64,000 nucleotides of DNA from an uncultured Verrucomicrobiae bacterium (GTDB lineage Bacteria > Verrucomicrobiota > Verrucomicrobiia > Chthoniobacterales > JAFAMB01), in contig CAVXLD010000001.1 in NCBI GenBank assembly GCA_963762565.1, positions 591,612-655,611 of the forward strand, written 5' to 3'. Under the pieces are notes generated by a model. That model was given only the letters and a program-made list of their open reading frames with translations. It did not search any database and was not told the DNA's origin. The first letter of the stretch is position 1, and each line of letters opens with the position of its first letter. Of the stretch, positions 3,370 to 61,952 are shown one piece after another. The position numbers and the translations under genes were made by a program.

Positions 3370-3545
3370 GGAGCAGTGAGAGGTGATTAGTGATTGGTGA
3401 TTTGTGATTGGTAGAGGAGCTAGGATCTAGGAGCTAGGAGTCTTACTGTTCTAGTCGATCCTCTTCGCGATCTTCGCGGCCTTGTTGTGGTTGTATTTTT
3501 TTTTGCGCTTTTTGTGCCTTTTTGCGGCTATTCTTTCTGGCTTTG

Positions 3546-10170: not shown

Positions 10171-10337
10171 GGTGAAAGGTGAGAAGTGAAAGGTGAAAGG
10201 AAAGTAGTCAGTAGGTCAGTAATCAGTAACAGACAGGAGCTAGGAGTTAGCAGTCGTATTTCTTTGCGATCTTTGCACTCTTTCGCGGCTATTCCTTCTT
10301 GGCTATCGGCTATTGGCTATTGGTCATGCGCGCAGCG
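10171..10337. repeat. Modular heptamer/nonamer spacer between permease genes
   Basis: Ordered blocks (GGTGAAA)n, (ATCAGTA)n, (GGAGCTA)n, tctttgcgatctttgcac, (GGCTATT/C)n. Homologous to spacers at 46952-47292 and 49735-49913. Confidence 0.85.
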
Positions 10338-12822: not shown

Positions 12823-12986
12823 GTGGAGGGGGGAAGAGGTGATTGGTGATTGGTGATTGGTGGGAGCACCGCGTCAGGCCGAACTGTGGGTGGACGGTAA
12901 CTAGGGATCAGTTCGGGGCTGGTGGTCGCCGTATAGCGGTTTGAAGGCAGGTGCGTGCCGCGCGGATGTCGGTTGTGTGGACAACC

Positions 12987-13678: not shown

Positions 13679-13785
13679 GGCGTTTGGCGTTTGGCGTTTG
13701 GCGTTTGCGTTTGGCGTTCGGCGTTCGGCGTTTGGCGTTTGGCGTTTGGCGTTCGGCGTCGGAAATAGCAAATCGCAAATAGCAG
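13679..13785. repeat. Heptamer tandem repeat (GGCGTTT/GGCGTTC) x ~11, followed by AAATAGC-type heptamers
   Basis: Directly visible just downstream of the C39 stop codon. Confidence 0.9.
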
Positions 13786-35511: not shown

Positions 35512-35615
35512 GGAGGCCGATGAGGGGTCGCCACCCGTGGAGCGCTGCCTCGCTTGCGAGGCCGATGAGGGGTCGCCAACCGTGAGAGCACTGCCTCGCT
35601 TGCGAGGCCGATGGT
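35512..35615. repeat. Tandem ~45-bp copies of the GTGGAGCGC-GCCTCGCTTGCGAGGC REP-like unit
   Basis: gaggccgatgaggggtcgcca-ccgtggagcgctgcctcgcttgc repeated about 2.3 times. Confidence 0.8.
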
Positions 35616-38918: not shown

Positions 38919-39125
38919 GGTGGTGAAAGGTGATTGGTGATCGGTGAGTCGTGATTGGTAGGGCGAGGCTCCCGACTCGAGTCTAGGACGTCTTCGCAAG
39001 GCGTCATAGTGCTTTTCTTGAAATGATTAGTTGCGCCCAAGACTGCCGAGCCGGTTCCAACGCGTGCAATCTCCTAGCGTTATTTGTCAGTTGTCATTTG
39101 TCATGCGCTTCGCCTTGGCTATTGG

Positions 39126-41550: not shown

Positions 41551-41600
41551 GGTGAAAGGTGAGAAGTGAAAGGTGAAAGGTGAAGGAGCTAGGAGCTACC

Positions 41601-44256: not shown

Positions 44257-44294
44257 GGGGTGATTAGTGATTAGTGATTGGTGATCGGTGATCG

Positions 44295-44478
44295 GTGGAG
44301 CGCGCCTCGCTTGCGAGGCCGTGGTAAGCAGGGCTGATGGTAGGTCAGGGGCATCTTGGAGCTGCGCTCTGGGTTATGAAAGGGCAGACGTTCCTAACAT
44401 AGGGCCTTGAGCGTAATAAGGTATGCATTACTAGGTCCTTTGTTCACCACGGCCTCGCAAGCGAGGCAGCGCTCCACG
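44295..44478. mobile_element. REPIN/MITE-like element (copy 2)
   Basis: Same terminal inverted repeats and homologous core as 41601-41786. Confidence 0.75.
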
Positions 44479-46951: not shown

Positions 46952-47310
46952 GGGGGGAGAGAGGTGAAAAGTGAAAGGTGAGAGGTGAAAGGTGAGAGGC
47001 TAGTAAGCAGTAATCAGTAGGTCAGTAATCAGTGTAGGAGCTAGAATCTAAGAGTTAGGAGTATGTTTTTCTTTGCGATCTTTGCGTTCTTCCGCCTTCG
47101 CCAAGCCTACGGCGCGACAGGTTTTGCAGCTATCTGTCATTTGGGATTTGTTCCGGCGGCTGCCGGATCATGCGCTTCGCCTTGGCTATCGGCTATTGGC
47201 TATTGGTCATTCGCGTAGCGTGTCATTCGCGTAGCGTGATCGCGAGTTTCGCGTAGCGTGTCATGCGCGTAGCGTGTCATGCGCGTAGCGCCTTATTCGC
47301 GTAGCGCGGT
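46952..47310. repeat. Modular spacer with tandem ~16-bp amplification of the permease stop-codon box
   Basis: Heptamer blocks, then tcattcgcgtagcgtg / tcatgcgcgtagcgtg repeated about 5 times next to the true gene end ttattcgcgtagcg. Confidence 0.85.
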
Positions 47311-50762: not shown

Positions 50763-52277
50763 TTAACCGAGGTGAATCCAGACAGACTTTGTATGCGTGA
50801 CGGTCAGCAAAGTTTCAAGACATTTATCTCGTCCGGTGCCGGACTGTTTGAACCCGCCCCAAGGCTGAGTCATATCGCCGTGGTCAAAGCAGTTAACCCA
50901 AATCACGCCGGCATCGATGTCCCTGGCCATTTTGTGAGCTGCGGTCACATCAGAGGTCCAGATCCCGGCAGCAAGGCCGTATATCGAATCGTTGGCGATA
51001 TTTACGGCCTCATCGAGGGTCGAGAAACCGAGTACGGCGCCAACTGGTCCAAAGATCTCTTCCTTGGCGATCTGCATCTGATTGTTCACTTCGCTAAACA
51101 AGGTCGGCGCCACATAGGAGCCGCGGTTGTAGCCTGCAGGGATATTTCCCCCAAGCACGAGTTCAGCACCCTCTGTTTTGCCGATATCAATAAACGAAAG
51201 AACCTTTTGTTGTTGGCTCCGGCTTACCAGAGGGCCCATGGTGGTAGCGGGATCAAGCGGATCACCTAATCGTACCGTTGCTCCTACTTTTTCCTTAAAT
51301 CGTTCGATGAATTCGTGGCGAATAGTCCCGTCGACTAAAATCCGGGATCCGGCGCTGCACATCTCGCCTTTGTTCCCGTAGATTCCGTTGACCGCGTAGG
51401 CGACGGCGACGTCTAGATCTGGAACCTGGGCGGTGATGATCTGCGGTGATTTACCGCCGGTTTCCACCGTAACGCGTTTCAGGTTCGATTCACCTGCGTA
51501 AACCATCATTAATTTGCCGACCGTGGTGGAGCCAGTGAAGCTGATTTTGTCGACATCCATGTGTAGAGCCAGCGCTTTCCCGACAATGCTACCGGCACCG
51601 TGCACTACGTTGAATACGCCCGGCGGGCCGCCGGCCTCCACGAACAGTTGAGCCAAGAGGGTAGAGGATAACGGTGATAGTTCGGCCGGCTTCAGCACGA
51701 CGGAGTTACCTGCCGCTAACGCCGGGGCCACCTTCCAGGCGTTCATCAGTAACGGATAGTTCCAAGGTGTGATACACGCCACTACCCCCAGCGGCTGGCG
51801 CAGAATGTAATGGAAGGCATCGGACGCCGTGTTGGTAACGACTCCCTCGATTTTGTCGATGGTTTCTCCGAAGTATTGAAAGGTCAGCGCTGCGGCTGGG
51901 ACATCGCCCGTGAGCATTTCTACCACCGGTTTGCCAACATCCAGCGAATCGAGCAGAGCAAACTCGAGCGCATGCTCATCGATCAAGTTCGCCAAACGAT
52001 AAAGAACCTCCATGCGGGCGCGTGGTTCCATGCGCGCCCAAACACCGGACTTAAACGCTTTGCGAGCCGAGGCTACCGCAAGATCGACATCTTCGCCGGT
52101 CCCTGCCGGCACCGTCGCTAAGACTTGATCATTTGCCGGATTGACGGTCTCGAATCGAGCTCCAGAATTTGTGTCCACCAACTCTCCGTTGATGAACATG
52201 CGCGTTTCCGGTTTTAGGGCCGCAGCGTACCGCCGAAATTCATCGTAACTCAGCGCTCTGGCTTCTTTAGCGTTCAT
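50763..52277 (-). CDS. Aldehyde dehydrogenase (PuuC-like)
   Basis: ITPWNYP, LKPAE, FTGST, ETGGKSP, GEMCSAG, EEIFGP, PWGGFKQSG. Confidence 0.93.
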   Translation of the reverse strand: MNAKEARALSYDEFRRYAAALKPETRMFINGELVDTNSGARFETVNPANDQVLATVPAGTGEDVDLAVASARKAFKSGVWARMEPRARMEVLYRLANLIDEHALEFALLDSLDVGKPVVEMLTGDVPAAALTFQYFGETIDKIEGVVTNTASDAFHYILRQPLGVVACITPWNYPLLMNAWKVAPALAAGNSVVLKPAELSPLSSTLLAQLFVEAGGPPGVFNVVHGAGSIVGKALALHMDVDKISFTGSTTVGKLMMVYAGESNLKRVTVETGGKSPQIITAQVPDLDVAVAYAVNGIYGNKGEMCSAGSRILVDGTIRHEFIERFKEKVGATVRLGDPLDPATTMGPLVSRSQQQKVLSFIDIGKTEGAELVLGGNIPAGYNRGSYVAPTLFSEVNNQMQIAKEEIFGPVGAVLGFSTLDEAVNIANDSIYGLAAGIWTSDVTAAHKMARDIDAGVIWVNCFDHGDMTQPWGGFKQSGTGRDKCLETLLTVTHTKSVWIHLG

Positions 52278-52293
52278 CGCCAAAATCCTATTT

Positions 52294-52823
52294 AGATCCG
52301 CAGATTACTCAGATTACGCAGATTTCTTTGGGGTTGAGCTAAGGTGTTGCGTCATGGGACCAGACAAAGCGCTGGTGCTGCAAACTTGTAGCTCCGAAGT
52401 TGAAGACCAGGCCCCTTTGGTGCCGGCCAGCTTTCAAGTAATTTAGAACTTGAGCTGTCTCTACGTCGCCGAGTTTGCCCAAGGCTTTGAGCTCGACGAT
52501 GATTGAGTCGTAACAAAGCACGTCAGCTCGATAGGATGAGCGGAGTTCTCGGCCTTTGTAAAAAACCGGCATCGCGGCTTGGGGATAGAAAGGAATTCTT
52601 CGATCGGTGAGCTCGAGTTCGAGCGCCTCCTGGTACACCGGTTCCAGAAAGCCGCATCCGAGTTCCTTATGAACCTCCAGCGCCGCTCCAATGATTTGAT
52701 AGGTTTGATCATCCATGCGAAATAATAACATATTAACATAATGTTCTCTACGTCGAATCTCAACCCCGGCGGTACCATTACTCCCAAAACAAAATCTGCG
52801 TAATCTGTGTAATCTGCGGATCT
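52294..52823. mobile_element. GxxExxY cassette bounded by 32-bp inverted arms made of 9-mer repeats
   Basis: agatccgcagattactcagattacgcagattt (52294-52325) versus aaatctgcgtaatctgtgtaatctgcggatct (52792-52823): 31/32 complementary. Confidence 0.6.
52339..52731 (-). CDS. GxxExxY protein (PD-(D/E)xK-like)
   Basis: IIGAALEVHKELGCGFLEPVYQEAL...RADV...IIVELKA...QVLNYLK; alternative start at 52716. Confidence 0.9.
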   Translation of the reverse strand: MLLFRMDDQTYQIIGAALEVHKELGCGFLEPVYQEALELELTDRRIPFYPQAAMPVFYKGRELRSSYRADVLCYDSIIVELKALGKLGDVETAQVLNYLKAGRHQRGLVFNFGATSLQHQRFVWSHDATP

Positions 52824-52842
52824 TTTCGTTTTTGCCGGTTTC

Positions 52843-55143
52843 TCAAAGATCGAGCACAACCTCCCGTTCCCCGCCGGAAGCGGTCTGGGCCAGATCAGAG
52901 CGAGGAATCGAGCAACAGAGCAAAACTTCGCCTGGGCCGCGCACCGCCACCGGTTCTTCCAAGTAATCGACTGCGCCGTTGCTAATGCGCGTGGTACAGG
53001 TCCCGCAGATACCGGAGCGGCACCCGAACTTCGGAGCTAAACCGATCGATTCGGCAAGCTCGAGCAAAGTGCCTTTGTCGCGTGACCATTCGGCGGTGGT
53101 TCCCGATTTGGCAAACCGAACCCGGACCGGAGGAACGTCAGCGTGACCAGGCTCGATCACTGTTTGCGGCCTTCTTTCCGGTTTCAGAACCGTTGCCGGA
53201 CCGAAGGACTCGTAATGGATTCGTTCCTCCCGGACGCCGATTCCGGTGAGGCCATCATAAAGCGATTTCATGAAGGGCGGCGGACCACAGAGATAAAAGT
53301 CGTAGTCGCCAAACGGGAGCATCTGTTTGAGTGTTTCGATGCTGATCCATCCAACGGAATCGCACTGATTATCCGGTCCTGCGTCAGGCTCCGGATGACT
53401 GTAGGCGATATGCACTTTCAGTCCCGGATGCTGGCCGGTGAGATCCCGGATATGCTTGGAGAACGCGTGCACCCTGTGGTTATGAGTACCATGGATGAAG
53501 TAAGCAGGTCGAAACTTCCCCGTGCGGCGCCCCTCGTCGACCAGGTATTCAGCCATCGCGATCATTGGGGTAATGCCGACGCCGCCAGAAATCAGTACCG
53601 GTATTCGACCGTTAGAATTGAGAATAAATTTACCCCGGGGTGCAGCCGCCTCCAGTCGAAAGCCGGGCTTTGCATTGGCATGCAAAAACGGTGAGACCAG
53701 TGCGTTTCCTCCTTCGCGGCGGATACTCAAGCGATAGTGATCGGCATTTGGAGCAGCCGAAAGTGTGTAAGTGCGTAACGCAGGCTCTTTTTGCCCGGGG
53801 ATCGTTATCCGAATCGGTAAAAACTGGCCCGGTTCCCAAGGTTGAAGCGCCTGGCTGTCCGGACGCCGAAAATAGAAGGAAGTGATAATATCGCTTTCGG
53901 GCTCCACCTTAAACAATTCTAACTCGACATAAGCGCTCCGCTCAGTCTCTGAAGCCGCTGAAGAGGTCGGAGCGACCGAGATCGTTTCCGAAACTCCCCG
54001 CACGTCTTCCGCCATCGATTTGAGCGCTGTCGCGTCGCCGGCGACCGCGCTAGCAACCAGCTTTTGAAAATGACCAACCAGATGCTCAGCCCGGGTCAGA
54101 AACCTGCCCCGTTCCGGTATGGCCGCTCGCAATCCGCGCTGGACCGAGTCGGTAAGGACATCATCTTCGAGGCCGACCTGAACGTTGAATCCAATCAGTT
54201 CTTGCGCGAATTCCTGCGAGACACCAGGGCCGAAATACTGTTCAGAGAAGCCCTTCGTGCCATTGGGGCCATTTGGTATCCAGACATCGATCGAAAGATT
54301 CGGGAACCCAGGATTGATATTGACCGTCATGTTTGGCCAGAGCAGGTGATATTGGGCTTGGGCGACTTCACCTCTGGCGTCGTAAATCTTGACCTGGCTT
54401 TTACCTTCCAACGCGGACTGCCGTACCTGACCGACCTGACTCATGAACCAGCCGTGCACACCGAGATTGTAGTTCTCCGGTAAAACATCGATCGCGGCGC
54501 TGAAGCCCGGATGGGCTACGGCGCAGTGATAACATTCGAGATAATTCTCGAGCATGGTCTTCCAATTAGAGTAGGACTCCCATTCTCCGCGCTCGTACAA
54601 AACCAGAGAATCAAGATCGATCCCGCTCCCAGCAACAATCTCAAGCAATTTGCCGAATTGGGTCTTTACGGGTGAGGCACTCGGATCTGCGTTGACAAAA
54701 ACCCACGGGCCCAGCGTATCGACTTTGAGCGGCAGAAGCGGATAATCCTCAAGTCGAAAGTTAGGTTCTGTCGCCGTTCGCGGCGCACCCTTCAGGCGGC
54801 CCGTTAGATCGTAGGTCCAGGCGTGATAACCGCATTGCATCATTTGGGCATTTCCACAGCCCTTCATCACTTCGTGCCGGCGATGCCGGCAAACATTGTT
54901 CAACGCGGTCAGACCGCCTTCGTTACGGATTACCACGGCGGGGATACCGCCCACATAACCGGTGATATAATCGCCGATATTGGTTAGCTGTTTGAGCGGG
55001 CCGATGTAATTCCAGCTTTTCCTGAAGATCTGACTAATCTCTCGGTCAGTGATCGAGGGATCGGTATACCAATACGCGGGTAGGCTTTCACCACGGTCGA
55101 GGCCGGCTACCAAGCCGGCTAGGTTTTCACTAGATTGGTTCAT
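52843..55143 (-). CDS. Fused Rieske non-heme-iron oxygenase (CntA/choline monooxygenase-like) + FAD/NAD reductase + 2Fe-2S ferredoxin
   Basis: Oxygenase: NVCRHR...CGYHAW, NWKTMLENYLECYHCAVAHP, EDD. Reductase/ferredoxin: RTYTLS, GGVGITP, YLCGPPPFM, HYESF, CRSGICGTC...CC. All in one 766 aa ORF. Confidence 0.88.
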   Translation of the reverse strand: MNQSSENLAGLVAGLDRGESLPAYWYTDPSITDREISQIFRKSWNYIGPLKQLTNIGDYITGYVGGIPAVVIRNEGGLTALNNVCRHRRHEVMKGCGNAQMMQCGYHAWTYDLTGRLKGAPRTATEPNFRLEDYPLLPLKVDTLGPWVFVNADPSASPVKTQFGKLLEIVAGSGIDLDSLVLYERGEWESYSNWKTMLENYLECYHCAVAHPGFSAAIDVLPENYNLGVHGWFMSQVGQVRQSALEGKSQVKIYDARGEVAQAQYHLLWPNMTVNINPGFPNLSIDVWIPNGPNGTKGFSEQYFGPGVSQEFAQELIGFNVQVGLEDDVLTDSVQRGLRAAIPERGRFLTRAEHLVGHFQKLVASAVAGDATALKSMAEDVRGVSETISVAPTSSAASETERSAYVELELFKVEPESDIITSFYFRRPDSQALQPWEPGQFLPIRITIPGQKEPALRTYTLSAAPNADHYRLSIRREGGNALVSPFLHANAKPGFRLEAAAPRGKFILNSNGRIPVLISGGVGITPMIAMAEYLVDEGRRTGKFRPAYFIHGTHNHRVHAFSKHIRDLTGQHPGLKVHIAYSHPEPDAGPDNQCDSVGWISIETLKQMLPFGDYDFYLCGPPPFMKSLYDGLTGIGVREERIHYESFGPATVLKPERRPQTVIEPGHADVPPVRVRFAKSGTTAEWSRDKGTLLELAESIGLAPKFGCRSGICGTCTTRISNGAVDYLEEPVAVRGPGEVLLCCSIPRSDLAQTASGGEREVVLDL

Positions 55144-56348
55144 ATTATTTTCGCTGGTTTTTCGCTATTCCCATTAGCTAAAGCTTCCGATGCGGGTGCT
55201 GGCGTGCCTTTTATCAGGAGTGGAAGGGAGAGAACCAGGACCGCAGAAACGCACAACAAGGTTTGATAAAATTGGAGGTGCCCCGCTGCAGTTGCTACGG
55301 CATTACTGGCCATCATCCCTATGGAGTAGGCGATGTTGTAGACTGCATAGACCGCCGTGTAACAACGGAGCCCGCGCCGGTCAACCGCGTTGCCGAGTTC
55401 TGCGGAAGTCGGGTTAAGCATGAAGGCAAACGACATGCTGACCAGACACAAACCGAATCCAGTAAGGACGATTCCTGGTAGGAGTCCAAGGAGCGGCAGA
55501 GTAATCGCCATAGCGAGGGTACCGCCAGCAATCACGATTTTAGTCGGCGCCAGGGTAGCGACCCGACTCACCACCGGAGTAATCAGCCCAAAAGCGATCG
55601 TTGATATGGTGAAAATCATCCCAATCGTGGAAGGAGTTGCCTCGGATCGGCTGAGATGTTCGGGTAGAAGCGGCTCCACAATTCCCCAGCCGAACGCGGC
55701 CAGGGCGACGGCCAATCCCGGCACCAACACTGATTTATCCACCAACAGCGCAAATAGTTCCGCGTTAGACCCGCGATAAGTTACTTTTCCCGGTAACAGA
55801 AAGATGCGTTGCACCGCATCGATCCCGACTAAGACAATCAGAATAAGAAACGGCAACGCGTAGCCGCCGGCTTGATAGAGGAATCCGCCGGCCACAGGTC
55901 CTAGCACCGAACCGGCCGTGCTACCCGCGAGGGCTAAACCCATCATCTGAACCCGGTTTTTAACGTAACCTTCCGCGATCAGCGCCAGTCCGGCGGTCCA
56001 GGTAGCGGCGGACGCGGCGCCCTGGCAAACACGAGCCAGCAATACCAGGGGAAAATTGCCGCCGAACCAGAATAGAAGCGTGGCCGTTAGGGATAACAGG
56101 ACCCCTAAGATTACGATGCGCTTGCCGCCGATCTGGTTACCCAGCAGTCCGAAAACTGGGGTGGCAACAAAGACACCGATAGCGTACCCGCCATAGAGCA
56201 AAGCAAGTCCCTCGTGACCACTAATTTGAGCAGGAGAGTAAGCCGTCAGCGGTACAACCAACCCATAGATGAAATAATCCAGGAACAGCGCATACGTAAT
56301 AACGTAAAACACTTTCCAGGAACCTAGCCGCCTGAACGAACCCAACAT
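55140..56348 (-). CDS. MFS transporter (DHA1 / vesicular amine transporter-like)
   Basis: About 12 TM helices; LFLDYFIYGLVVP, ARVCQG, YAVYNIAYSIG; ATGA overlap with the oxygenase. Confidence 0.85.
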   Translation of the reverse strand: MLGSFRRLGSWKVFYVITYALFLDYFIYGLVVPLTAYSPAQISGHEGLALLYGGYAIGVFVATPVFGLLGNQIGGKRIVILGVLLSLTATLLFWFGGNFPLVLLARVCQGAASAATWTAGLALIAEGYVKNRVQMMGLALAGSTAGSVLGPVAGGFLYQAGGYALPFLILIVLVGIDAVQRIFLLPGKVTYRGSNAELFALLVDKSVLVPGLAVALAAFGWGIVEPLLPEHLSRSEATPSTIGMIFTISTIAFGLITPVVSRVATLAPTKIVIAGGTLAMAITLPLLGLLPGIVLTGFGLCLVSMSFAFMLNPTSAELGNAVDRRGLRCYTAVYAVYNIAYSIGMMASNAVATAAGHLQFYQTLLCVSAVLVLSLPLLIKGTPAPASEALANGNSEKPAKII

Positions 56349-56481: not shown

Positions 56482-56965
56482 AGTTCAAGAAGTTCTAGGA
56501 ATTCTAGGATTTCTAGGAGTCCGGGGAGTTCTAGGAGCACGACCGTGGAGCGTTGCCTCGGTTCCTCCTCGGCCTTAAAACCGTCGTTCTCGAAAGCGTG
56601 TTCTTAGGGAGCGCTTCGAATTGGTCTGCAGCCGTGGAGGGGAGCCGCTTTGTAAGATGGCAAGTCTATCGGTTTCTAGCAGGCGGCTCCCGGAAACGGT
56701 CCCTGATGCGTTTGTTCTATCAACTCTGCAAGCCCCGTTTTCGAAAGGCCGAGCGGCGATGGAACACGCTGGGTCCTTCCCGGGAGCCGCCTGCTAGAAA
56801 CCGATAGACTTGCCATCTTACAAAGCGGCTCCCCTCCGGCGCGCGGCACACCAATGCCGTACGCTGGGACCGAAACCGGATTCGAGGACAGCTTGTCCGC
56901 CGAAGCCCAGGCTCTATTTCGTCACCCGCCCAAAGTCGGCCTCGCAAGCGAGGCGCGCTCCACAA
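56482..56965. repeat. Composite repeat: (TTCTAGGA)n 9-mers, an outer REP-like pair and an inner perfect 58-bp inverted repeat
   Basis: 56636-56693 is the exact reverse complement of 56780-56837. Flanked by gtggagcgttgcctcg (~56545) and ggcctcgcaagcgaggcgcgctccac (~56938-56963). Confidence 0.88.
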
Positions 56966-57069
56966 GAAGTAATCGGCAAAGACGGAAGGACGAGAACGAA
57001 GCGCCTTCTAAGTTTTGCGCCCTTTTTGCGGCGATCCCCAATCTTCGTATAGTCCTCCCGACTTCAGAA

Positions 57070-58392
57070 ATGCCAGCAGATGTTTTTATCAGCCATTCAA
57101 CCAAAGACAAAACGGTCGCCGAAGCTGTTTGTCACGAATTAGAAGCCAACGGCATCCGATGCTGGATCGCTCCTCGCGATATCGAATTCGGGTCGGACTG
57201 GACGGAAGGAATTACACACGGGATCGCCTCATGCAAGGTGTTCGTGCTGGTGTTCTCGGATTCCGCAAATACGTCGGATCATGTCCGGCGTGAAGTAGCC
57301 AAAGCGTTCTCACTCGGGTTGGCGGTGATTCCGTTTCGGACTGAGGACGTAGCGCCGAATCGGAGTCTCAGTTATTTCCTGGAGACGGTTCATTGGTTGG
57401 ATGCATTCCCCTACCCGGCAGAAACCTATTTTGGTACGTTAGCCGATCAGATAAAGCGCTTGCTGGAACGACCTGCAGCCACCGGCGAGGACGGTGGACC
57501 AGCGGCGCAAACGATCGTCGCAGTCGCTGCTCCCGCGCAAGTTGGAGGCTCGCACCTGTCCTCCTCACCTACAGCGAAGGAAGAAGCGAGACGGGCTCCA
57601 GGCGTGCCGACCCCTTCGGCCGCACAAGCGGGGCGCGCTCCACGGAAGGGCGCGGGATTGAGGCGAACGTTTCTCAGATTTAATTTGGTGTTCTTACCCA
57701 TCTTGGCGGCGGTTGTCGGCGGCGCAGCAGCGATTATCCACAGCCAACTGGAAAGCTACGCTCAACAGCAGATTGTGGCCGTAGCCCAGGTCATGTTAGA
57801 GACAGCCAAAGCATCACGGAAATATACAACCAAGCAGATTGCGCCCTTATTAGAAAGTCTGCAGTCATCAGATCAACAGTTTCATCCGCAATCGATCCCG
57901 TTTTATGCGGCTACAGAAGCATTCAATTATTTCCGACAGGCGCACCCCGATTTCGCTTACAAGGAAGCCGCGCTGAATCCCACTAACCCTCGGGATCGAA
58001 CGGTGGATTGGGAAGCGGATATTGTGAACGCGTTTCAGAAGGACACCTCAAAAACAGAGCTGACCGGCCAGCGAGACACCCCTCTCGGGCCCTCTCTCTT
58101 TATCAGTACTCCGATCAAAGTCGATGACGCCAGTTGTCTAGAATGTCACAGCACGCCGGATAAAGCGCCTCCCGGCATGGTCAAACTTTATGGGAGTGCA
58201 AATGGGTTCGGGTGGCAAGCGGGTGATATTATTGGGGCGCAGATCGTCAGTGTGCCTGCCGCGCTAACGGAAAAAATCGCGAGCAACGCGTTCCAATCGA
58301 TCTTTTGGTGGCTGATCGGCAGCGCGATTGTCCTGTTTGCTGTAGCGAACGGAGCTCTGTTTTGGGTAGTACGCCAAGGAAGAGGCACATGA
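57070..58392 (+). CDS. TIR domain - TM - DUF3365/Tll0287-like heme c sensor domain - TM protein
   Basis: VFISHSTKD...CWIAPRDI...REVAKA; TM; YKEAALNPTNPRDR, CLECH (CxxCH), GFGW...IIGAQIVSVP; C-terminal TM. Confidence 0.82.
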   Translation: MPADVFISHSTKDKTVAEAVCHELEANGIRCWIAPRDIEFGSDWTEGITHGIASCKVFVLVFSDSANTSDHVRREVAKAFSLGLAVIPFRTEDVAPNRSLSYFLETVHWLDAFPYPAETYFGTLADQIKRLLERPAATGEDGGPAAQTIVAVAAPAQVGGSHLSSSPTAKEEARRAPGVPTPSAAQAGRAPRKGAGLRRTFLRFNLVFLPILAAVVGGAAAIIHSQLESYAQQQIVAVAQVMLETAKASRKYTTKQIAPLLESLQSSDQQFHPQSIPFYAATEAFNYFRQAHPDFAYKEAALNPTNPRDRTVDWEADIVNAFQKDTSKTELTGQRDTPLGPSLFISTPIKVDDASCLECHSTPDKAPPGMVKLYGSANGFGWQAGDIIGAQIVSVPAALTEKIASNAFQSIFWWLIGSAIVLFAVANGALFWVVRQGRGT

Positions 58393-58431
58393 TCCAGGCG
58401 GGCGCTGGAACAAATTGCCAAATGACAAATT

Positions 58432-58715
58432 TGGAGGGGAGCCGCTTTGGCGCGTTCTAGACGACCCCACCGATATTTTCCCGACGTTGATTAGTCCGAA
58501 ACGTGAAGTAAACAAGCGGCTCCCGGGAATAACCCAACGTTCGGCAGCTCTGCCGGCCAAAGTGGAATGAACAACAAGAACAGAACGAATCCGCCCGGTG
58601 ATAGCCTACGCTGGGTAATTCGCGGGAGCCGCCTGTTTTCGCACCTGTCGGTTGTTCCCGCGCAGGGAGTAACAGGGCGAGAGCATTAGATATGCTCCAA
58701 AGCGGCTCCCCTCCA
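58432..58715. repeat. Second member of the GGAGGGGAGCCGC double-hairpin family, between convergent genes
   Basis: tggaggggagccgctttgg ... ccaaagcggctcccctcca with internal gcggctcccgggaataaccca ... tgggtaattcgcgggagccgc. Confidence 0.8.
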
Positions 58716-58721
58716 GTGCGC

Positions 58722-61145
58722 TCACTTTGCAATGACAGCTTGCACCGCAGCGACGGCATCGATTAAGCCAAAGCCATCGCCCGGCTGGTAGACGTGGGTT
58801 GCGGGGCCCGGCTTAAAAGCCCCAGAGATCGTCTGGCTCGAGAATCCGGACAAATTGGCGGTGAAGGTTGCGCCATTAGGAAGATCCAGAGCATCGACTC
58901 CTACTCCATAGGCGCTCTGGGTAAAACCTTTAAAACTTCCGGCCTCATTTTGTCCGACAGTGAAGCTGATGGAGGCCCCGTTCGTGAACACACCTTTCTT
59001 AAACTTAAGCGTAAACGTTGACGTGGCGCTGGAAGGAGATTCGACGGTCACTTCTGAGGAGCTGAATCCGTCTGCGGAGCCAATAATAAAATCTGCTGAG
59101 GTTGTATTAAAGACCAGACCAGCCGGGGAACCGTCGACGGTTACGCTATCAATGTATTCGTCGGATGGACCGAAATAATTAATGGTTAGGTAGTTCGGGC
59201 CGAAATAGAATGAGCCCAGCGCAGTAACCGAGATATTGCTTCCGCCATTCGAGCCATGAAAAGATGCTGATTCTTCAAAGCCACGTCGGGGCAACGCCGT
59301 ATTTTCGAGCACCGATCTCACCCGGTCAGCATCGAGCGAAGCGGGTCCTCCGGCAGCCTGCAACATCAGCGCAACTACACCAGCGACGGTTGGCCCAGAC
59401 GCGCTGGTGCCGAAAAATGCGAAAGGATAGTCATAGTAGCCCGGCTTATAAAAGAAAGTAGTAATAACGCCGTCTACCCCTGCCACCTCGGGCTTTAGCC
59501 GCACCTCGGGCGTGCTCAGGCGGACTCCGTTTTCATCGAAATAGATATAGGCTGGTCCCGGCGTAGTGTAGTTCTCTAGCTCAGGCTGATACGGCGGTTC
59601 TGGTTTCCAGTTAAAGACATAGGCTGCCACTCCGATAGCCGACGCGGCGGCCGGATGCCCGTAAATGATGGGGACGTTCAAGGGAGCCGGTTGAAAATAG
59701 GTACCGGTCAGAATGCTTAATCCGTCCAGGCTGGTATACATTGCCAGTTGATGAGTGGCGGGTGGCGGTGGAGCCTTAGGATCGGTCTGCGTGGTCTTGG
59801 TAAAGGCAATCTGATAAGCGGTACCCAAGTTCAGGCTCCCGGTGTACTTGAAAGGTTCCTGGGTTTTGAAGGCATTGCGAGTGCCGCTCAACGCGCGCAA
59901 AAAGTTACCGTTTGCATCAAAAACCAGAAAATTATAGTTGGTGGTGATCCCGTCGTCCTGATCGAACAAATCATCCCATTGTAGAAAAAGGTTGTACAGA
60001 TACTGGGAAGGCCCGGGTACAACCAAAGTCGTGACCGGTTCAGAACCGCCTTCGGGATTCCAGTTGTGCCATCCGCCAGCTGTCAACGCAGGATCCAGGT
60101 AATGAGGCGAGTTCTTATCGGTAACATCCAATTTAAGATTGCCATGCTGGCCTGCCGCCCGCACCTCAGCGTCGGACAGCTCGCGGTAGGCGCTGCGATA
60201 GCCGTTGTTACCATCATTACCGGCCGATGAAGTATAAATCACTTTCTTACCTGGCAAGGTTTTGCTCGTAACTACGGCGTCAACGGCTTGAGAAACGATG
60301 CCATCGGAAAAGACCGGCTCATCGTAATAGCCAAGGTCATCATCAATTACATCGCAATTCGCTTCAGTTCTAAGCCGAACGATATTATTGGCAAAACCGA
60401 CTTCACTGTAATTGCCGGTCGCGAACGCTTCATTACAACTCGGCGCTTCCGCGTAAGCAATCTGACAGATAGCGCGCCCTTCATCGCTACCGGGCTTGCC
60501 CGGTTTACCCCAGTCCTGAAGGACATTAACAACTGGCAAATAACCATCTTTTTCATCCACCTCAGCGGTGGTCCGAGGCGGATGCTTAGCATATTGAGCC
60601 GTGTTGAAGCTGTCGGATAGCACACCGATGGTGATGCCGTTCCCGGTGAGCCCCTGTTGGTTGAGCACATCGGTTTGCAACACTTCGCGGCTCTGAGAAG
60701 AATATTTACCGGCCCGCTTGACGGGCTCGTGTTCCATGGTTAAAGCGCGAACTCCGAGAATACCGGCAATATTGTCCAGTTGATCCGTAGGAACATAAGC
60801 GGCCAGAATGCCGTGACGGTAGGTGGAATTACGATCGAGAACGACTCCTTGCAAAGATTGGAGGTGCTGCGCGACCTGGTCCAGCGAGCTTCGTCCATCC
60901 AATAGCACATGAACCAGCACGCGATCCTGATCGTCGAATCGCCCGCCGATGGCCTCTTTGTCTGTGTCACTGACCTTCGCGATTTGGGAATGCACACCCG
61001 AGGCGCCGGCCTCCGGCATCGACAACTTCGCGTGCTCAGACAAGGTTGCTAACCCCGAATCGAGGTTCTGCGCTGATTCAGCACTAAAAGCGGCGGAGGC
61101 AAACAAAAAGGAAGCAGAGATTGCGGCGTAACGGCTAAGGTTCAT
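58722..61145 (-). CDS. Secreted subtilisin-clan serine protease (S8/S53-like)
   Basis: Signal peptide and propeptide; IGVLSDSF, DEGRAI, SSAGN, KPEVAGVDG, FGTSASGP, GFGLIDA. Confidence 0.85.
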   Translation of the reverse strand: MNLSRYAAISASFLFASAAFSAESAQNLDSGLATLSEHAKLSMPEAGASGVHSQIAKVSDTDKEAIGGRFDDQDRVLVHVLLDGRSSLDQVAQHLQSLQGVVLDRNSTYRHGILAAYVPTDQLDNIAGILGVRALTMEHEPVKRAGKYSSQSREVLQTDVLNQQGLTGNGITIGVLSDSFNTAQYAKHPPRTTAEVDEKDGYLPVVNVLQDWGKPGKPGSDEGRAICQIAYAEAPSCNEAFATGNYSEVGFANNIVRLRTEANCDVIDDDLGYYDEPVFSDGIVSQAVDAVVTSKTLPGKKVIYTSSAGNDGNNGYRSAYRELSDAEVRAAGQHGNLKLDVTDKNSPHYLDPALTAGGWHNWNPEGGSEPVTTLVVPGPSQYLYNLFLQWDDLFDQDDGITTNYNFLVFDANGNFLRALSGTRNAFKTQEPFKYTGSLNLGTAYQIAFTKTTQTDPKAPPPPATHQLAMYTSLDGLSILTGTYFQPAPLNVPIIYGHPAAASAIGVAAYVFNWKPEPPYQPELENYTTPGPAYIYFDENGVRLSTPEVRLKPEVAGVDGVITTFFYKPGYYDYPFAFFGTSASGPTVAGVVALMLQAAGGPASLDADRVRSVLENTALPRRGFEESASFHGSNGGSNISVTALGSFYFGPNYLTINYFGPSDEYIDSVTVDGSPAGLVFNTTSADFIIGSADGFSSSEVTVESPSSATSTFTLKFKKGVFTNGASISFTVGQNEAGSFKGFTQSAYGVGVDALDLPNGATFTANLSGFSSQTISGAFKPGPATHVYQPGDGFGLIDAVAAVQAVIAK

Positions 61146-61240
61146 GAGATTGCTTCTAGGACGTCCCTGAAAAGCTTTTGGGATTCAACAGGTTCAATCA
61201 AAAGACGCAATGAGTTGTCAAAGGTTTTCCACGGATTCTA

Positions 61241-61952
61241 TTTTTCACAACAAAGGCCGCAAAGGCCACAAAGAGGGATTTTTCTGTCTCCTATCTTTGT
61301 GGCCTTTGCGGCCTTTGTTGTGAAATTTTGGGCTTCGACTTTGCGTTCTTGCGTGATATCCCTGCGTTTCGCTGTGACTCTGGTACTTTGCGGCTTTGTT
61401 GTGGCTTTGTCTTTTGGCCGGACTAGGACTACAGAGCTTCCTTAAGGACTACGCGTCGGATTCCGTTCTTCAGAACGACCTCGTGAAAGTTGAACAAAAG
61501 GCCTAACGGCCTTTTGAGGAGCTTCATATAGCTCATGAGCTGGGCTTCGTGGATTGGGAGAATTTCTTGTACGGCCTTAAACTCAAGAATCAGGACGTCA
61601 TCAATCAGAAAGTCGAGTCGCAAAGGTTCCTCGAAAACGAAACCTTTGTACTCCAGTTCAACCCTCAGCTCTCTTACATATGGAATCTGACGAAGCTCGC
61701 ACTCCCGGCCAAAACACTTTTGTAAATCTCTTCGATTAAGCCGGGACCCTCGATCCGATGAACCTCTATAGCCGCCCCGATTACACCGCTGCTCCACACG
61801 TTAGCTTTCCGTAACGAATCCCACATTTCGTTAACCTAGTGAATCCGACACTCAACAACATAGTATTTATATGTTTTATTCTATCAAGAAAACGGAATCA
61901 ACCACGGTCGTTCTGAACCTTTGTGGCCTCTGCGGCCTTTGCTGTGAAATTT
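61241..61952. mobile_element. Second GxxExxY cassette with 9-mer inverted arms
   Basis: tttcacaacaaaggccgcaaaggccacaaag (~61243-61273) can pair with ~61295-61326 or with ctttgtggcctctgcggcctttgctgtgaaa (~61919-61949). Confidence 0.55.
61429..61826 (-). CDS. GxxExxY protein (frameshift near 61722)
   Basis: MWDSLRKANVWSSGVIGAAIEVHRIEGPGLIEEIY/KCFGRECELR...RLDFLIDD..ILEFKAV...AQLMSYMK. Confidence 0.82.

Follow-up and report, generated by a model that had tools for sequence, protein, structure and literature searches.

A GxxExxY gene between hairpin arms in an operon

The stretch of DNA analysed here (the window, 64,000 nucleotides, G000:C1:591612-655611, where G000 is the genome under study) contains a small gene of the GxxExxY/PDDEXK_3 family that lies, enclosed by a pair of inverted arms built of tandem 9-mers, inside an operon. 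The gene, an open reading frame (ORF) of 130 aa at 52339-52731, is situated between a Rieske oxygenase fused to reductase and ferredoxin (52843-55143) and an aldehyde dehydrogenase (50763-52283), with an MFS transporter gene (55140-56348) as a further operon neighbour. All four are on the minus strand, so that the GxxExxY gene reads in the same direction as the operon genes on either side of it, as originally predicted, and profile matches confirm its family. The arm downstream of the gene occupies 52294-52325 (32 nt, 9-mers CAGATTACT/CAGATTACG/CAGATTTCT) and the arm upstream of it, the 5' arm on the gene's sense strand, 52792-52823 (plus-strand 9-mers AATCTGCGT/AATCTGTGT/AATCTGCGG). Each contains three CGCAGATTA-like 9-mers; the two are complementary at 31/32 positions (97%) and are spaced 466 nt apart. 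A second, inner pairing of GGGGTTGAG (52330-52338) with CTCAACCCC (52759-52767) is perfect (9/9) and forms in both the minimum-energy and the centroid RNA fold. Arms and inner pairing alike thus bear out what had been read from the sequence at the outset.

The whole inserted unit spans 553 nt (52283-52835) and carries a putative promoter of its own. A sigma-70-like match, TTGAGA-17-TATGTT at 52735-52763 on the minus strand, stands just upstream of the gene, and its -35-like hexamer overlaps the inner stem half CTCAACCCC; it is a match to the consensus only, one of 2 such matches found where 0.7 were expected. No Rfam family reaches its gathering score in the window. In 7 of the 9 intact genes in the cassettes of the genome the stop codon falls 1-19 nt from the downstream arm, and the leaders measure 70-265 nt. 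The outer end of the unit (52283-52293, sense strand ...TAGGATTTTGGCGATG) places an AGGA about 8 nt upstream of the dehydrogenase ATG, a spacing at which the insert may provide that gene with a ribosome-binding site.

Insertion and turnover in same-genus genomes

Comparison with five genomes of the same genus (G001-G005) reveals an empty site. In G003, the sole relative having the operon, positions 768-1749 of contig C429 correspond to window 51301-52282 and positions 1751-2247 to window 52836-53332, both at 91% identity; window positions 52282 and 52836 are joined with a single base between them, and no hairpin is present. The junctions, CGCCA|AAATCC... and ...TTTTGC|CGGTTTC in G000, read CGCCA-G-CGGTTTC in G003, where the oxygenase TGA and the ATG of the dehydrogenase are separated by 13 nt. 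All 553 nt (the gene with its two arms, plus some 10 nt beyond either arm) have been gained or precisely lost as one piece. Conservation of the gene in this operon across relatives, which would have spoken for a resident gene, is therefore not what the comparison returned.

Other cassettes of the genome also differ between relatives. The intergenic site of one of them holds, in G004, a short gene-free hairpin of a different arm family, and remnants of that family's arms (E1-type) lie outside the cassette in G000, which suggests a nested insertion. A third cassette is found in G004 and G005 and not in G001 or G003; G002 has it inverted, with 71% identity against 80-82% for its flanks. The site in G003 corresponding to the cassette at G000:C1:116793 was considered as a further clean empty site and rejected, as it is occupied by another gene and by repeats resembling repetitive extragenic palindromic (REP) elements. 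Within the window, a segment of about 3 kb (~58400-61400) is shared by G000, G003 and G004; G002 and G005 lack it, and there the blocks on either side adjoin each other. Its breakpoints lie beside hairpin repeats.

Read-derived contigs break at the arms of the window unit, and the summed depth is 277-2351 there against about 3-16 beside them. Joints in these contigs were rejected as empty alleles, their sides being shorter than 30 nt and derived from gene-free hairpins of other loci or organisms. A single RNA-library run yielded one 212-nt contig from part of a related gene, with 10 differences over 52527-52735, which has no bearing on transcription or cleavage.

Gene-free hairpins and further cassettes

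Six gene-free 9-mer hairpins had been listed in the window when the sequence was first read. All six exist, with arms of 16-37 nt, and their composition needs correction: exact CGCAGATTA occurs only three times in the window, twice within the arms around the GxxExxY gene, and different 9-mers must therefore make up the remaining hairpins. The first (693-713/859-879) has ACGCAAAGG-type arms matched at 20/21 positions. The second (7632-7652/7710-7730; 21 nt, 90%) has CACAGAGAC-type arms, which the paralogue at G000:C1:116793 also has, and the third (14264-14284/14331-14351; 20/21) matches one end of the G000:C7:520788-521389 cassette with 92% identity over 98 nt. ACAAAGGCC-type arms of 16 nt (94%) form the fourth, at 23894-23909/23950-23965, and resemble those of a second cassette in the window. 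The fifth is nested, with outer CGCAGATGAA-type arms (30541-30562/30772-30793; 22/22) around an inner CGCGAATGG-type array like the arms of the cassette at G000:C1:1444956. The sixth (31875-31911/31933-31969; 35/37) consists of CGCAGAGGA/CGCAAAGGA arms and in this resembles two cassettes, at G000:C11:163271 and C15:24163. Three of the window hairpins match ends of cassettes elsewhere in G000. The second GxxExxY cassette of the window (61243-61949) has arms at 61243-61273/61919-61949 (29/31 matched) and a minus-strand gene at about 61447-61790 that is split over two frames; its left arm also pairs perfectly with a copy 19 nt away, giving a gene-free hairpin at 61243-61274/61294-61325 (32/32).

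Such hairpins are abundant. Inverted pairs that match at 20 or more bases and lie within 2.5 kb of each other number 2316 in G000, or 1880 once redundancy is removed, and the arms of each of its cassettes recur elsewhere in the genome, in 2 to about 100 arm copies per family. Gene-less hairpins are 10 to 50 times commoner than the genes sharing their arms. CGCAGATTA-type arms are common to two cassettes, that of the window and C11:64668-65562, and their family numbers about 98 arm copies and 27 paired gene-free hairpins with loops of 74-177 nt, mostly near 90 nt. The arms of these hairpins are nearly identical. Their loops could not be aligned in the 23 compared, and shared loop sequence or structure was not found beyond a weak inner stem beside the arms. 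Among 68 loops of 9-mer hairpins, about half have other matches in the genome, mostly nested repeats and in a few cases true loop-to-loop copies. Some gene-less copies are nonetheless recognisable as internal-deletion derivatives: G000:C13:1372-1638 keeps both ends of a window-type cassette and has lost about 280 nt of the gene, and C5:122415-122600 and C14:122982-123211 are derived likewise from another cassette.

Association of gene and arms across genomes

The pairing of gene and arms is general. In G000, 14 matches to TIGR04256 fall at 12 places, 11 of which lie between 9-mer arms of 26-103 matched bases; the twelfth, without arms, is a 40-residue fragment. The control set consisted of the 1540 ORFs of 100-180 aa in G000 that are not overlapped by longer ORFs, with arms of at least 24 matched bases required. 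Only 31 of the 1540 are so enclosed, namely 9 GxxExxY genes, 4 Y1 transposases, 2 four-helix-bundle genes and 16 ordinary genes, which puts the frequency of enclosing arms at about 1% of ordinary small ORFs. The window's own GxxExxY gene is missing from this set, presumably because a longer ORF overlaps it in another frame. Among family-level relatives, arms of at least 16 matched bases occur at 24/29 GxxExxY loci and at 0/53 positions shifted by 1 kb. A sample of 80 cross-phylum homologues, fetched with two peptides and therefore confined to the clade of the window gene, has arms of at least 18 matched bases in 64 of the 77 testable cases (1/271 in shifted controls). The hosts of these homologues belong to Acidobacteriota, Planctomycetota, Verrucomicrobiota, Alpha-, Gamma- and 'Delta'-proteobacteria, Chloroflexota, Cloacimonadota, Ignavibacteriales and Spirochaetaceae, and include the cultured Asticcacaulis, Salinisphaera and Belliella. 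Arms are thus far commoner at GxxExxY genes than at other small genes, the comparison on which the original prediction had staked itself.

A second line of evidence comes from the arrays themselves. The 9-mer words of different clades share the form C-R-C-R-R-A-N-N-N, and three such words in a row were taken as an array pattern and counted in 151 genomes of the window's phylum. The pattern occurs 0-305 times per genome against 0-2 for the reversed pattern, an abundance far beyond chance. Genomes with at least three arrays make up 57 of the 75 that have a GxxExxY gene and 5 of the 76 that have none (Spearman 0.75, in a sample of relatives that are not independent of one another).

Sequence and polarity of the arm words

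The arms are conserved in sequence as well as in pairing. CGCAGATT-type arms enclose every one of the five closest homologues, which come from three genera of the family, and most cross-phylum arms read ATCC(G/A)CAGATTACGCAGATT, even though the proteins they enclose are only 52-61% identical to that of the window. Between phyla the arms have a mean pairwise identity of 0.71 (0.60 when the anchoring motif is left out), to be compared with 0.73 at codon positions 1 and 2, 0.35 at position 3 and 0.29 in the DNA immediately flanking the arms; in its degree of conservation the arm word comes close to the gene's non-synonymous positions. Another clade has arm arrays of CACAGAGGA words. On a quick maximum-likelihood tree of 109 proteins, 81 of them labelled by arm type, 16 arm-type changes suffice, against 24-29 in 500 shuffles of the labels. 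The same tree mixes phyla at short distances, indicating that the cassette moves horizontally.

The words also have a fixed direction. In 152 inverted pairs they point to the loop and in 11 they point the other way; each of these 11 pairs has a spacing of at least 775 nt, which identifies them as arms of neighbouring hairpins paired together. The stability of a stem is indifferent to polarity, so that fixed polarity and conserved sequence fit either mobile-element ends or an array to which a protein binds directionally. Identity of the outer arm end with a DnaA box was rejected; TTATCCACA is found in only 5/51 arms.

The GxxExxY protein and a proposed mechanism

The 130-aa ORF matches TIGR04256 over profile positions 2-116 of 116 (E 4.3e-40; 136.7 bits, cut-off 35) and PF13366 (E 4.9e-38; 130.5 bits, cut-off 22). 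Judged from where alignments of homologues begin, its true start is probably the second ATG, at 52716 (MDDQ...). An AlphaFold2 model computed from 109 sequences has a pLDDT of 89.4 and a restriction-endonuclease-like alpha/beta core, in keeping with the PD-(D/E)xK fold that had been anticipated. Its structural matches comprise Cas4 SSO0001 (Foldseek E 4.6e-4), the BpuSI nuclease domain (Z 8.1), 3ijm, an uncharacterised Spirosoma protein (Z 8.0), and Hjc (Z 5-5.9), together with R.SwaI and lambda exonuclease. All are generic members of the superfamily, none stands out, and no particular substrate is therefore suggested. Residues G27, E30, Y33, K82, N111 and F112 are invariant among the 109 sequences. 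Conservation of at least 90% is reached by E30, D70, E80, K82 and Q94, of which D70, E80 and Q94 are nearly invariant. From the conservation of these residues the active site looks intact. The protein combines the modelled fold, the acidic residues and the lysine by which the PD-(D/E)xK nuclease superfamily is recognised, and nuclease activity is accordingly a prediction from model and alignment. A sequence search of solved structures returned no match at E <= 1, and a phage collection contained no match; in a plasmid collection, 8 records match the protein, all typed as non-mobilizable.

The best reading of these data is that the GxxExxY gene and its hairpin arms form a cassette that moves horizontally and has numerous gene-less relatives, and which resembles REPIN/RAYT systems in its logic and intervening sequences of 23S rRNA in its build. 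REP-associated tyrosine transposases (RAYTs) are Y1 tyrosine transposases of the HUH type that go with short palindromic repeats. The GxxExxY cassette is a widespread and apparently undescribed kind of selfish DNA. At about 0.55 kb, it consists of one GxxExxY nuclease gene, its own promoter-like site and two inverted 9-mer arrays. The nuclease would bind, on DNA, those 9-mer arrays that belong to its clade, and would cut at or near them. Such cuts would set off excision or copying, both of the cassette itself and, in trans, of gene-less hairpins, which would be partly deletion derivatives and partly independent copies. Joining would be left to host repair or recombination. Where the operon is read through, the arms would form a 32-bp RNA duplex that RNase III is predicted to cut, as in 23S rRNA intervening sequences, and the cut would separate the oxygenase message from the dehydrogenase message. 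That the nuclease recognises and cuts its own arms is the most economical mechanism, to which we would give about an even chance of being right.

Several observations weigh against this reading. A lone PD-(D/E)xK nuclease of 125 aa cannot rejoin DNA by itself. No target-site duplication or direct repeat was found at the junctions of the one site examined, no excision product was found, and, since the operon occurs in only one of the five same-genus genomes, there is a single clean empty site. Clear arms are missing at 13/77 cross-phylum and 5/29 family-level homologues, and seven genomes have genes and no array fitting the strict pattern. The converse also occurs: there are 3 arrays without any gene in each of G130, G060 and G179, and the 8 arrays of G098 are accompanied by gene fragments only. 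The most pointed case is G124, a genome 95% complete, in which 40 arrays, nearly all of the one family CGCAAAGAA/CGCAAAGGA, form gene-free hairpins (for example C10:12161-12263, C22:30282-30570 and C102:221-543) and no GxxExxY match is found even at E <= 1. Of 199 matches of the window cassette outside its own locus, only 2 reach the interior, most gene-free loops being unlike it. Finally, gene and arms are inherited together, so that agreement between tree and arm type is partly expected; it is evidence of linkage and conservation and not in itself proof of recognition.

Alternative readings

The alternative that survives best holds that the hairpins move without the enclosed gene. Tandem-word hairpins would be mobile by means of Y1 (HUH) transposases or RAYTs, or through host recombination at palindromes, and GxxExxY and four-helix-bundle genes would be nucleic-acid-binding dwellers in their loops, perhaps stabilising or exploiting them. 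In its favour is a second, unrelated family with the same architecture. Genes of PF05635, named '23S rRNA intervening sequence protein', have such arms at 5/7 loci in G000 (C11:15938-16556, C11:105880-106428, C3:44093-44982, C1:1345197-1345776 and C5:382067-382598), where the arms consist of tandem 6-8-mers such as GGTGATT, AGGAGCT and CAGGAGTT. In relatives, arms of at least 18 matched bases flank 25/27 testable PF05635 loci, the maximum in 46 controls being 14, and the words have a period of 7 (13 loci), 8 (8), 6 (3) or 9 (1). As PF05635 proteins are not nucleases, nuclease chemistry may not be what moves the cassettes, which is a further point against the mechanism proposed above. The 40 homogeneous arrays of G124 and the cassette that apparently sits inside an older hairpin in G000, with E1-type arm remnants outside it, are likewise as expected of passengers. 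A candidate mover is at hand as well, G000 having 10 Y1_Tnp matches over the cut-off, 7 of them flanked by REP-like arms.

Against passengers stands, first, the nature of those arms: around RAYT-like Y1 transposase genes (PF01797) at C1:118882-119560, C3:712344-713118, C7:408584-409344 and C3:55304-56077 they are ordinary REP-type palindromes of 46-61 nt without tandem words. Second, the site in G003 is empty without a pre-existing hairpin. Third, arm word and protein clade are linked across phyla and the arm sequence itself is conserved, which is hard to understand if the protein never reads the arms. On balance we regard the passenger explanation as rather unlikely. The RAYT-like gene beside the C1:116793 cassette lies in opposite orientation between its arms in G002 and G005.

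Tandem heptamer arrays also lie between genes of the window, with words GGTGATT, GGTGAAA, GGCGTTT, AGGAGCT and TTGGCTA (3383-3440, 10171-10323, 12838-12862, 13679-13784, 38921-39104, 41551-41598, 44259-44297 and 46962-47206); these are probably gene-free arms of the four-helix-bundle cassette type. Among the other repeats of the window, a perfect 58/58 inverted repeat (56636-56693/56780-56837, with an 86-nt loop) stands just upstream of the ORF at 56854-58392. Spurious GGEPL...RRLP ORFs of similar elements cluster in 15 loops genome-wide, which marks it as a different repeat family. Two tandem repeats lie at 35513-35613 (46-nt unit, 2.2 copies) and 47206-47306 (16-nt unit, 5.9 copies).

A wider form of the cassette reading would unite GxxExxY cassettes (9-mers) and four-helix-bundle cassettes (6-8-mers), the 23S rRNA intervening sequences among them, in one superfamily in which a tiny protein reads a tandem-word 'address' on its own arms. 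This is a tentative proposal that we would not expect to hold. If it were true, GxxExxY would represent a new mode of moving DNA by a lone 125-aa nuclease with programmable, clade-specific words.

Less probable still is an explanation at the level of RNA, which the original prediction had offered in the form of an mRNA intervening sequence. Here the arms would be selected as a stem cut by RNase III, the insert being removed or insulated, and mobility of the DNA would be secondary or ancient. The 552-nt sense RNA does fold strongly (-207.9 kcal/mol, z -7.15), with the 32-bp and the inner 9-bp stems in minimum-energy and centroid structures, the cassette is co-directional with the operon, and an intervening sequence of the same build, in Coxiella, is excised by RNase III according to the available part of PMC4990558. 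The mismatches in the arms tell otherwise. Among 1243 hairpins genome-wide there are 758 G·T and 755 A·C mismatches; hairpins with two transition mismatches are concordant in strand in 111 cases and discordant in 135; and on the sense strand of 64 cassettes there are 36 G·U-type against 33 A·C-type mismatches. The lack of a G·U bias points to selection at the DNA level and not on a one-strand RNA stem. Moreover, a purely structural stem needs neither a conserved arm sequence nor a fixed word polarity, and cassettes occur in either orientation relative to their neighbours. Of the intervening-sequence idea, then, the 32-bp RNA stem stands and the expected preference for G·U does not; on this analysis, excision at the RNA level is likely to be a consequence of the arms rather than the reason for their retention. 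That the gene is an ordinary, immobile host gene whose arms serve as terminator or attenuator hairpins, as its place between operon genes and its promoter-like site might suggest, is very improbable: the joint absence of gene and both arms from G003 already contradicts it, a sequence scan found no terminator-like site at the unit, and the gene has 11 copies with different neighbours and a tree that mixes phyla.

Significance

GxxExxY proteins number thousands in databases and have no assigned function; papers that mention the GxxExxY/PDDEXK_3 family assign none in the portions available (PMC8934634, PMC3424549). A literature search found no description of GxxExxY paired with hairpin arms, though papers beyond the searched literature may exist. 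Clade-specific 9-mer arrays as a DNA partner provide a direct and cheap biochemical hypothesis for these proteins, and if the pairing of protein and word is real, it might yield a set of small sequence-specific nucleases. A cassette system of this kind would explain a large share of the intergenic hairpin repeats in several phyla and would offer an origin at the DNA level for the long-puzzling rRNA intervening sequences. It also carries a warning for annotation, as such cassettes split operons and seed spurious ORFs.

Relation to known systems

Miniature inverted-repeat transposable elements (MITEs) have terminal inverted repeats of fixed polarity, insert between genes and include gene-less copies that are partly internal deletions of autonomous parents. 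The GxxExxY cassette shares with them inverted ends of fixed polarity, gene-less deletion copies and insertion between genes. It differs in lacking a recognisable transposase and a visible target-site duplication, and in that most of its gene-less copies share the arms only. The variety of insertion sites argues against simple allelic homing, as by a homing endonuclease gene. Abundant tandem words of 7-9 nt, located between genes near stop codons, are also a feature of the paired GGGAATC heptamer repeats of Xanthomonas and Nostoc, which have been read as G-quadruplex formers; the available part of that description mentions neither an enclosed gene nor mobility (PMC4692102).

The likeness to REPIN/RAYT systems is closer. 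Both comprise a small gene flanked by inverted repeats that recur without the gene as hairpin-forming doublets, and in both the gene and the repeat family are linked, the repeats being commoner in genomes that have the gene. The suggestion, made at the outset, of a RAYT/REPIN-like pair of autonomous and non-autonomous elements is accordingly sustained by insertion as a unit, by gene-free copies and deletion derivatives, and by the co-occurrence of array and gene (57/75 against 5/76). It does not extend to the enzyme or to its inheritance. A RAYT is a transposase with palindromes, whereas the GxxExxY cassette has a PF13366-only gene with tandem-word arrays; RAYTs, as far as the available parts of PMC3116915 and PMC3337134 describe them, are single-copy and vertically inherited, whereas GxxExxY cassettes number 11 in G000 and cross phyla, and G124 has its 40 arrays and no gene. 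RAYT-like genes with ordinary REP arms coexist with them in G000 as separate loci.

In build, the closest counterparts are the 23S rRNA intervening sequences of Coxiella, Leptospira and others. That of Coxiella, in the part of its description available, is a selfish element of 428 nt with a 28-bp terminal stem, an S23p ORF and three tandem heptamers (GACAGAT) at its 5' end, and is excised by RNase III (PMC4990558). On that description, the two kinds have in common a unit of about 430-550 nt within a transcription unit, a stem about 28-32 bp long that contains short words in tandem, and one small ORF that nearly fills the loop, and the rRNA elements, too, are regarded as selfish. The differences lie in the protein (a four-helix bundle as opposed to PD-(D/E)xK), the words (heptamers as opposed to 9-mers) and the host transcript (rRNA as opposed to an mRNA operon), as well as in the abundant gene-less copies, a feature of the GxxExxY cassette that the same portion of PMC4990558 does not describe for 23S rRNA intervening sequences. 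A further account of insertions in 23S rRNA, in the part available, covers transposase-bearing inserts only and does not mention GxxExxY (PMC2672173). The window unit lies between two protein-coding genes and not in a 23S rRNA gene, and it has the terminal stem around a small ORF that typifies these elements; the same build in the Coxiella intervening sequence ties the GxxExxY cassette to a known kind.

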